A DNA stretch of 62,220 bases, the filler included, from Hausera hauseri (lineage: Eukaryota), in NCBI GenBank assembly GCA_046269625.1. It is 10 parts of 10 records of this genome, joined end to end, with 100 filler letters (N's around TTAATTAATTAA, not from the genome) between each part and the next. Parts side by side here need not be neighbours in the genome. Positions count along the whole stretch, not along the records: positions 5,466 to 14,590 come from JBJURY010454356.1; 9 more parts are not named here. The stretch is one strand, 5' to 3'. The notes under the pieces are model-generated. The model had not been told where the DNA came from, made no database searches, and saw nothing but the letters and a program-made list of their open reading frames with translations. Below, piece after piece: positions 11,901 through 14,245 of the stretch. The position numbers and the translations under genes are program-made. Position 1 is the stretch's first letter. Every line of letters starts with the position of its first letter.

Positions 11901-14245
11901 CTAGAAAGTCATTCAGGCACTTTCCTCGATATCTTGAAGCAGCATCGAAAACTATCCGGCATTTTGTGGTTTCCCTATCAATTTTCATAACCGGAAAATG
12001 TGGCAACAGCTAAGCTGTCTCTTGTTCCTCTTGTTCCTCCACTACTCGGATATACCCTTCATTCATATATGCTTCTATAATCTTTTCATATACCGCTTTA
12101 GTTTTCTCATCTTTATCTAACTTATTTTTCAGAGTTTTCAACCGTTTTTCTGCCATTTATTCATTGATTTCCACTTCAGGTTGCATCCCTCCATTTCAAG
12201 GTAACGGCACACAGTATCTATTTTCTTGATAAGTTGTTTCCTTTAATATGTGCTTTATCGCCTCTTCATCTTGTTTATTCTTCTCAAACTCTTTTGTATC
12301 CATGTTAAATTCGACCTCCCATAAGCGGCTCAGATTATTTAGAATTTCCTTTGTTCTTGTCCAAAATGTCCTCGTGAAATTACTATTTATGTTTTTCCTT
12401 TTTTTTTATTTGTCCTACACAAGTTTAGCCTAATGAAGTTAACCGTGCCACTGGCGCATCCCTTTTGCCATATACCTCTTTGATTGACCTGTGTAACTCT
12501 ATAAAGTTTGCCCCAACGATACCATTCACTTCTAAGTTGTGCGACAATGTGGAAAACCTTATGTGCTTTAGATGGGGCCATTTTTGTTTTTCTGTGGACC
12601 AATTCACTGCCCTCATCTTTCCAGTTGGATTTTTCATAGCGATTGCCTCAAATTTAACTTCTATTAATTGGTCCATATTTATCAATATCATTTTGACCCT
12701 GTCAATAGACATCTCAGTCTGTTTCCCTTCGACGACTGTTATCGTCAACCTTTCTGTTTTCTTATCGACACCTAGTTCTTCACATAGTTTTGAATCGACG
12801 AAACTCTCGGTACTGGCGTCGTCTAACAACATTATTGCCTTTTTCATTCTATTCCCAGTCTTTAACCAGCTACCATTTCCTCCTGTTCACTTATCTCCAC
12901 AGAATCTTGGTTAACATAGGTTCTAACATTCCTTCATTTACTTTTTATTTCTTTTCTTTTTCATTCTTTAACGCCCGTGGCGCGGATTCCTCTATTATCG
13001 TGCTTCCTATATTTTCACAAGAATTTTCAGTTTTTTGCCTTATACCCTCCTTATCATAATTACTTTTGTCCTTCTCTTTGCTACCAGTTTTCCCGTGTAG
13101 GAATTTACAATTATTCCCATACTTACATTCTCCCTTTTCAAAGTATCAGCATATCCTTTATTGATCGTTCCTACTAGATCGATGTAAATACTTATAATTT
13201 TCTCTGAATTTACATTGACCGTTCTTATCATAATTCCAGCATCTCTGGGATCGATCCTCTAGCTGTATATTTGAGTGGTTAGGCTGCATCCCTTTCTTAG
13301 CTTCTCGATCCTTTATTTTGGGATTCATATTCTCGTACTCTTTATTCACAGCCTGTGATCTTTTTGTGAAGTACAATCATCTATCTTCTACAGGTGAATA
13401 TCGAACACCTCGACGTGTGTTGAACACTTCCATCGCTCTTACTCTCTCTGTGGTATTCCTCCTGACAATCGCTTCCGTTTCAATCCAATTCTTCAATTCT
13501 ATGTTCCTACCTGACTTTTTCTCGACGACATACATTTCCCACAAAAGTACAATTGATTATGGGAGCTTCTCCACAAGGCTTTGGTACAATATCCCTCCAC
13601 TAAGCTCTTCTGTTCTCCCTAGATTCCTCAATCTTACAATTATCCCTTCTAATAATGCCACGAATTCGTCTAGCCCTCTTATGTCTTCTGCGAGAATTGC
13701 CCGGAACTTCATGACTTCGGTCATAAACACCGCATAATATCGCTGTTCACCACCGTAGTAGGAATCCAGTTTCCTAGGGATGCCCTATACCCTTCTTCCC
13801 ACATGTCGAAGTTTTTTGTTAACCTTTTCGGCTCACCATATAAGCACCTTTCCAACTTTAGTTGTTTACATATGGTAGACATTAACGTTTTGTCCACACG
13901 CGTGTCTAATTTTCTTCTCCATCGGTCATATTCGACGATCTCACCACCAATTTTTGGCAGCTCCAGCCTTTGTAGTTTCTGCAAGATTATTTTTTTTCTC
14001 ATTTCGTCATTCGCGGTCTTTTTTGTTACGTTGACGACAGTTTTATTCTTCCTAAAACTCCGTTCATAAATAATTGTGTTAATCTTTTCATTTTGTTGGT
14101 CAAACTTCTCCATCTCCTTCTCCAGTAGCGTTACGTTTTCTTTTATTTTTAATTTTCTAGCTGCGGTCGTCAATAAACACAGTTCTTCTTGGACGTTTGA
14201 GAAAATCTTTTCATAACTTCGAAAGAACCCTTTGACTGAACGCGC
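8689..14245 (-). mobile_element. Decayed, 5'-truncated BEL/Pao LTR retrotransposon with 3' LTR
   Basis: Gag LELPKIGGEIVEYDRW (DUF1759-like); protease LLDDASTESFV; RT KCRIVFDAAS..CLNDFLDPGPKL..DIQEMFLQI. Pao A17/RNase H KTLGIKW, TKRTLLS..MFDPFG, IPRLELMAA, TDSMNVLYWI, FVANRV. Integrase GIDFVGP, RFISRRG, WIFNPPATPHFG, NSRPL, LSPNHF. Many stops and frameshifts. Confidence 0.93.

Follow-up and report, generated by a model that had tools for sequence, protein, structure and literature searches.

The window, by which we mean the whole 62,220-nucleotide stretch of Hausera hauseri DNA analysed here, includes a BEL/Pao LTR retrotransposon whose Gag encodes two tandem CCCH zinc fingers between the capsid and the protease. 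We consider it likely that this element belongs to a small BEL/Pao lineage in which a captured, nucleocapsid-like pair of cellular-type CCCH fingers stands in place of the triple Cys-His box. Ten contigs make up the window, separated by spacers of N that include a 12-base stop linker, and elements located outside positions 5466-14590 are for this reason not neighbours of the BEL/Pao copy. The contig bearing this copy is the second in the window and has a length of 9,125 bp and a GC content of 0.367. Its minus strand is a dead, decayed copy of the element with many stops and about seven frame changes (Table 1), and the coding strand is A-rich, with 0.34-0.43 A over the coding region.

Table 1. 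Features of the contig carrying the BEL/Pao element, in the 5' to 3' order of the element; positions are those of the window.
Feature	Position	Strand	Evidence and remarks
Family-B DNA polymerase-like fragment, YMDTDS motif	14288..14590	-	Translation; weak tblastn
Gag helical region and first half of DUF1759 (capsid)	13775..14215	-	58% identity to P0073 residues 54-199; frame change near 13773
Second half of DUF1759, capsid C-terminal part, one stop	13431..13772	-	PF03564 E 0.0076 (below cut-off); custom BEL Gag profile E 1.5e-16
CCCH finger 1, degenerate, C-x8-C-x5-(Y)-x3-H	13182..13241	-	11/20 identical to intact P0073 finger 1
10-residue linker, one stop	13152..13181	-	Length as in P0073; 1/10 identical
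CCCH finger 2, C-x7-C-x5-C-x3-H, one stop	13095..13151	-	PF00642 37.2 bits, E 2.7e-9; PF18044 34.1 bits
Aspartic protease (DUF1758; LLDDAS ... IVGA)	12392..12868	-	PF05585 E 0.066, PF13650 E 0.12, both below cut-off; 48% identity to P0073
Reverse transcriptase, stops and frame change near 11775	11513..12402	-	RVT_1 E 2.8e-5; tblastn of BEL relatives
Pao-type RNase H (Peptidase_A17)	10848..11327	-	PF05380 115.6 bits, E 2.7e-33
Integrase (H2C2 zinc domain and core), broken; core limits approximate	9400..10172	-	PF17921 E 4.8e-7; tblastn
DUF5641, Pol end	9073..9351	-	PF18701 E 1.4e-16
Probable polypurine tract (9010-8997) and 3' LTR (about 8996-8801)	8801..9010	-	Inferred; motif positions

The assignment to BEL/Pao, already made in a sequence-only reading of this DNA, holds because the Pao-specific domains Peptidase_A17 (PF05380) and DUF5641 (PF18701) score above the Pfam cut-off, DUF1759 (PF03564) and DUF1758 (PF05585) are detected below it in this decayed copy, and the order of domains agrees. 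In the relative P0073, described below, PF03564 scores above the cut-off. The Pol domains follow Gag in the order protease-RT-RNase H-integrase, by which BEL/Pao elements are defined (PMC8742986), and in tblastn 12 BEL polyproteins tile the contig in the order Gag, protease, RT, RNase H, integrase. With the BEL/Pao elements (Belpaoviridae, Semotivirus; Sinbad, Pao, Suzu, Tas) the window copy shares the domain order capsid-protease-RT-RNase H-integrase-DUF5641, the LLDDAS protease, and the Pao-type RNase H, and it is nested among BEL elements in two trees. It differs from them in having two CCCH fingers where they have the triple Cys-His box; Tas is described as lacking the box, and CCCH is not mentioned in the available part of that source (PMC554778). 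As the ICTV profile does not use the box as a family criterion (PMC8742986), the element is filed as BEL/Pao but its Gag is non-canonical.

The depth of contigs from run X1 drops from 327 to 14 at position 8800, which supports the putative 3' LTR. Self-BLAST of the contig gave no repeat and hence no second LTR copy, and since its 5' end is unrelated sequence there is no LTR pair or PBS. At that end the polymerase-like fragment stands in place of the 5' LTR and the Gag head, and the BEL/Pao element is 5'-truncated or interrupted there. The fragment showed a weak tblastn match (E 5e-4 among candidates) to a 1087-aa ORF with the same motif on an IMG/VR contig, and no match in Pfam, PDB or phages; it may be of the Polinton/adintovirus type. 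It adjoins the BEL Gag at about 14220-14290 and is multicopy in run X1, with a depth of 1,200-1,800. The junction is either a nested insertion or an assembly join.

The sequence-only reading had proposed two CCCH motifs, the first with an altered third cysteine, and had seen no CCHC knuckle between capsid and protease. Both motifs were located on the minus strand, 10 codons apart and in a single frame that is also the frame of the second half of the capsid. Tyr occupies the third Cys position of finger 1, and the stop within finger 2 is at its second codon. With stops read as X, finger 2 passes the PF00642 cut-off of 20.5 bits and the 60-residue finger pair gives two PF00642 stretches, as the proposed zf-CCCH scan through the stops would have it, but finger 1 by itself matched no family at E<=10. 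Finger 1 is nevertheless a real finger in decay, because of its identity to the intact first finger of P0073 (11 of 20 residues); for finger 2 the corresponding figure is 10 of 19. Because a loose CCCH pattern matches seven times when all six frames of the window are read, a pattern match is weak evidence by itself, and it is the Pfam score and the relative P0073 that carry the claim. No CCHC pattern was found in the contig of the element, the three matches in the window being all in another contig (32073-32321), and the triple box in its published definition (CX2CX3-4HX4C, CX2CX2-4HX4-5C, CX2-4CX3HX4H) is absent between capsid and protease from both the window contig and P0073. The CCCH pair matches the solved cellular fingers of KIAA1064, YTH1, and butyrate response factor 2 (E 6e-5 to 8e-4). 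A structure model (AlphaFold) had a mean pLDDT of 43.7 and was poor over the fingers; Foldseek with this model gave nothing at E<=0.001, the top row being the PNMA2 capsid at E 0.1. No RNA dataset containing the element was listed.

A full phmmer scan of 1.84 billion representatives, in which the query was the 265-residue Gag piece of the window, gave as its best match P0073 (E 2e-42), encoded on a 4,408-bp ENA contig. This protein is a Gag-protease in an open frame, in which DUF1759 scores E 7e-16, zf-CCCH matches in two stretches (43 bits), and the protease is matched weakly. Its fingers are both intact, with the structure C-x8-C-x5-C-x3-H, a 10-residue linker, and C-x7-C-x5-C-x3-H, and no CCHC pattern was found in it. 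P0073 is colinear with the window element over three segments of Gag and protease, and as these are only 58%, 41%, and 48% identical it is a separate element and not the same copy. Its C-terminus matches CFAP58, which we read as a gene-caller join to a host gene. The capsid-to-protease segment of P0073, 230 aa long, has seven Cys and three His, and since six of the Cys and two of the His are within the fingers there is no knuckle remnant left.

Two more proteins came from a profile search, P0223 (Gag, 68% to P0073) and P0224 (protease side); each is encoded on a contig of 5,749 bp, and we infer that the two contigs are one and the same. P0223 goes out of frame where finger 1 should begin; in another frame its tail is compatible with seven of the nine residues at the start of P0073 finger 1, for which a chance control gave 4 in 32,960, a rough guide only because the control fixed four positions and the tail covers three. 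The sequence of P0224 opens within a CCCH finger (12 bits on a profile built from 713 cellular fingers; Pfam E 0.48), followed by a protease that is 72% identical to that of P0073, and P0231 is a near-identical copy of P0224 on a different contig. Of 73 proteins, just three exceeded 5 bits on this finger profile, namely P0073, the window copy, and P0224. The CCCH lineage as defined here thus comprises three elements only, those of the window, P0073, and P0223/P0224. Scans of viral and metagenome contigs gave no further CCCH relatives, and in the ESM Atlas only DUF1759 clusters were found, none with a CCCH family. A word-index search of the window Gag against proteins of 465-2000 aa gave no match, but it missed P0073, which is in that range, so that its blanks are weak. 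Significant scores on the BEL Gag profile were limited, among the best 150 phmmer matches of the window Gag, to P0073, P0084, P0154, and P0161. P0084, whose Gag is related at 48%, stops short of the finger region and is uninformative, and loose CCCH matches in P0014 and P0031 overlap the knuckles of these proteins and were discarded as chance.

One further phmmer match of the window Gag, P0195 (266 aa), carries four CCCH fingers, preceded by a helical stretch with a loose resemblance to the C-terminal part of Gag. It could be a further retroelement Gag with CCCH fingers, but had no Gag Pfam match.

Run X1 contains 0.62 of the sampled words; it may be the source sample of the window and is not independent evidence. 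In this run 1,665 contigs lie on window positions 8600-14590, most of them less than 90% alike and some on the polymerase-like end. Eight contigs at 80% or more cover the finger region and all of them differ from the window copy at both stop codons; the element is therefore multicopy there and the fingers are not private to the window copy. The third-Cys position of finger 1 is absent from the 40 differences listed of 1,764.

According to the available part of PMC554778 the triple Cys-His box is the hallmark of Pao-like Gag; the sequence-only reading had named three CCHC motifs as typical. Using the RNase H region of the window, 69 BEL polyproteins were found (28-40% identity), of which 53 span capsid and protease. 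A CCHC box is present between capsid and protease in 50 of 53 full-span BEL polyproteins, a count biased toward knuckle-bearing members by a Gag profile built from 49 of them; the other three have damaged or missing boxes, and a strict CCCH was found in none of the 53. The capsid-to-protease interval has about 219 codons in the window and 230 aa in P0073, compared to 173-211 aa in knuckle-bearing kin, a range measured in six of nine relatives because the capsid-end anchor failed in the other three. In the protease tree (45 rows) the window, P0073, and P0224 form one clade (SH-aLRT 95), with P0004 as its sister (95), and in the RNase H-integrase tree (70 rows) the window pairs with P0004 (SH-aLRT 96) inside the knuckle-bearing BEL elements. 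P0004, the nearest element found, keeps all three boxes. The two trees were quick searches, rooted at the midpoint and built with BEL rows only, and they drew warnings on long branches and composition; for this reason the direction from CCHC to CCCH rests on the nesting and on the published triple-box hallmark. The position beside a knuckle-bearing sister, together with an interval of similar length to that of knuckle-bearing kin, supports replacement of the CCHC box by the CCCH pair at the level of the lineage, as had been proposed, and we consider this replacement very likely. CCCH fingers are in this sense a clade trait, shared by the intact pair of P0073 and the remnants in P0223/P0224.

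Comparison of the window copy with P0073 showed identities of 69 of 106 residues in the capsid part and 21 of 39 in the fingers (54%), and of 10 of 49 and 11 of 33 aligned positions in the flanks and spacers (20-33%). The linker, of equal length in both, agrees at a single residue. Since the fingers are better conserved than the flanks, they were constrained while the elements diverged, a pattern that points to selection at the protein level.

In BEL/Pao elements Gag supplies the capsid and the nucleocapsid, which are cut by the protease of the element in the virus-like particle (PMC8742986), and we assume by analogy that the Gag of the window lineage is processed in the same way. From its position and from what is known of the family, the CCCH pair would be freed by the protease as the nucleocapsid. 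The pair keeps the conserved aromatic positions of cellular fingers, which stack on bases. Through these residues it may grip the single-stranded RNA of the element for packaging, with the Lys/Arg-rich flanks supplying a general annealing activity. A nucleocapsid-like role in RNA binding is probable. As for the origin of the pair, the trees suggest an ancestor that had the triple box, as its sister P0004 still does, and that would have lost the box and gained the CCCH pair in one lineage. Most likely the template was switched to a host mRNA that encoded a tandem-CCCH protein and had been packaged together with the element RNA; capture from host mRNA is plausible. Scoring of 196 pairs in 89 proteins as possible cellular donors placed a Ciona makorin (139), an unnamed protein (138), and a bird makorin (134) at the top, and none stands out by a margin. 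The N-terminal pair of makorins, KIAA1064, YTH1, and butyrate response factor 2 (TIS11d) share with the window pair the structure C-x7/8-C-x5-C-x3-H and the conserved Gly and aromatic residues, and the linkers of makorin pairs (9-10 residues) are like that of the window pair. On the other hand, the window pair differs from cellular tandem CCCH proteins in being inside a Gag polyprotein with no RING or other partner domain, and its first finger has x8 instead of the x7 of the makorins compared. We lean slightly toward a host gene over another mobile element as the source. The most specific form of the proposal, in which the nucleocapsid module was swapped and the genome is packaged by a tandem CCCH module taken over from a host protein that binds mRNA (makorin-like as the best guess), in a branch with a ubiquitin-like di-glycine Gag head, can be put forward only tentatively.

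The donor could instead have been another mobile element with CCCH fingers in its Gag or ORF1, either a gypsy element such as Saci-2 or a tyrosine-recombinase element, through recombination of co-packaged RNAs. CCCH fingers are found in Ngaro ORF1. Such a donor, which would fit with no cellular protein standing out, is one that we take seriously and yet find unlikely: none of the best 150 phmmer matches of the window Gag was shown to be another retroelement, and the main text of PMC3783388, on Ngaro, does not contain CCCH, zinc, or finger (CCCH is equally absent from the main text of PMC3118150). In the available part of PMC2582038 the Gag of Saci-2, a Ty3/gypsy element of Schistosoma mansoni, is reported with a 'CCCH' motif instead of CCHC, as in the window lineage. 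Saci-2 is however from another superfamily, and its motif may be a rearranged knuckle and not the zf-CCCH fold. An origin in place, by rearrangement of the Cys and His residues of the old boxes and thus by convergence with no capture, has some precedent in the variant boxes of CsRn1 (CHCC; available part of PMC2582038) and Troyka (CX2CX8-10HX4C; PMC12440569, also in part). We hold it to be very improbable, given that the spacing and the G, F/Y, and K positions of the pair match zf-CCCH profiles well above the cut-off, that solved cellular fingers are matched as described above, and that it has no spacing in common with the three BEL boxes, all of which start with CX2-4C (PMC554778, as far as its available text goes).

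Alternatively, the knuckles were simply lost and basic residues package the RNA, and the CCCH pair was kept for some other job; it might, for example, direct Gag or its RNA to granules or protect the RNA against CCCH decay factors of the host. The absence of the triple box from Tas means that BEL elements can differ at the box, and CCCH proteins are discussed as anti-retroelement decay factors in the available part of PMC5031192. The P0073 segment is rich in basic residues (46 K/R in 230 aa), and its first finger begins 107 residues after the capsid end, compared to about 43-60 for the first knuckle in six relatives. However, with 34 D/E the segment is not more basic overall than in relatives, the pair lies between capsid and protease, where relatives have the box, and on the protease tree the box is lost where the pair is gained; we judge this other job improbable. 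That normal knuckles were merely deleted in the window copy, an outcome the sequence-only reading had allowed for, does not agree with P0073, the closest relative intact in the region, which has two CCCH fingers and no knuckle. From the junction with unrelated sequence upstream at about 14220-14290 one could suspect that the pair was inserted later from an unrelated source, or that it reflects an assembly join, in the window copy alone. This was refuted by the same pair at the same place and in frame in P0073, where the segment is colinear and homologous and so cannot be a later insertion in the window copy; in addition, the eight X1 contigs carry the region and none of the 15 joints listed (of 28) skips the fingers. 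We regard it as practically excluded. Replacement of the box by a captured CCCH pair is thus the reading that we prefer.

No report of CCCH fingers in BEL/Pao Gag was found in a literature search whose scope left subscription journals, Repbase reports, and GyDB mostly outside. Within that scope the CCCH pair in BEL/Pao Gag appears to be new, and precedents in other retroelement groups lower the surprise. A similar event is CopiaMBD, in which a host MBD, also a nucleic-acid-reading domain, was captured and kept by Copia LTR elements (PMC6673714, available part). There the domain was added and reads methylated DNA, whereas in the window lineage a core virion domain seems to have given way to the captured module.

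The region upstream of Gag was also compared. In P0004, which is a gene-caller fusion with kinesin and Sec23/24 domains, residues 741-800 are a ubiquitin domain (PF00240, 35.9 bits) that ends in LRGG directly before Gag. A stretch of P0223 (residues about 160-234) that ends in LKGG aligns at the same place; Pfam had no match for it, and the ESM Atlas linked it only weakly (0.81) to ubiquitin-like clusters. P0073 starts at LKGG (residues 5-8), and the matching part is missing from the window copy. These alignments suggest a ubiquitin-like head on Gag common to P0004, P0223, and P0073, possibly cut off by host deubiquitinases.

Other contigs of the window include further mobile or virus-like sequences. 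Two minus-strand ORFs at 45016-47274 match the Monjiviricetes fusion glycoprotein (PF24664, E 1.6e-13 and 4e-15); they are located on neighbouring contigs or at their border, and can be described as an env-like gene near retroelement ORFs. The minus strand at 26581-32984 encodes a long, uninterrupted gypsy-type Pol of 1,819 aa, in which RNase H and the integrase zinc domain are separated by about 450 additional residues; the Gag of this element has three CCHC knuckles (32073-32321). The contig at 22627-25579 is possibly Polinton-like: its plus strand encodes DNA_pol_B_2 and Endonuclease_7, and its minus strand a TBP-like domain (E 2.5e-7). Contig 38395-42708 has a CpG observed/expected ratio of 0.35, compared to 0.73-1.06 in the other nine, and the contigs may therefore come from more than one organism. 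Contigs 1-5365 and 55742-62220 have exact 77-bp terminal direct repeats, as typically arise when an assembler overlaps the ends of a contig that is circular or LTR-collapsed.

Reverse-transcribing elements usually rely on the CCHC knuckle as their module for RNA packaging and chaperoning, and if the proposed replacement is true this knuckle can be replaced by an unrelated cellular fold. The lineage has diversified, with elements 41-72% alike, and is multicopy with the CCCH pair, and can be considered a natural domain-swap experiment. With this swap one can seek to separate the nucleocapsid functions that depend on the knuckle fold from those for which a zinc-held RNA grip and basic residues suffice, and a naturally intact domain exists in P0073 for biochemical tests. 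Annotation based on knuckles will miss such Gag genes or misname them as cellular CCCH proteins.
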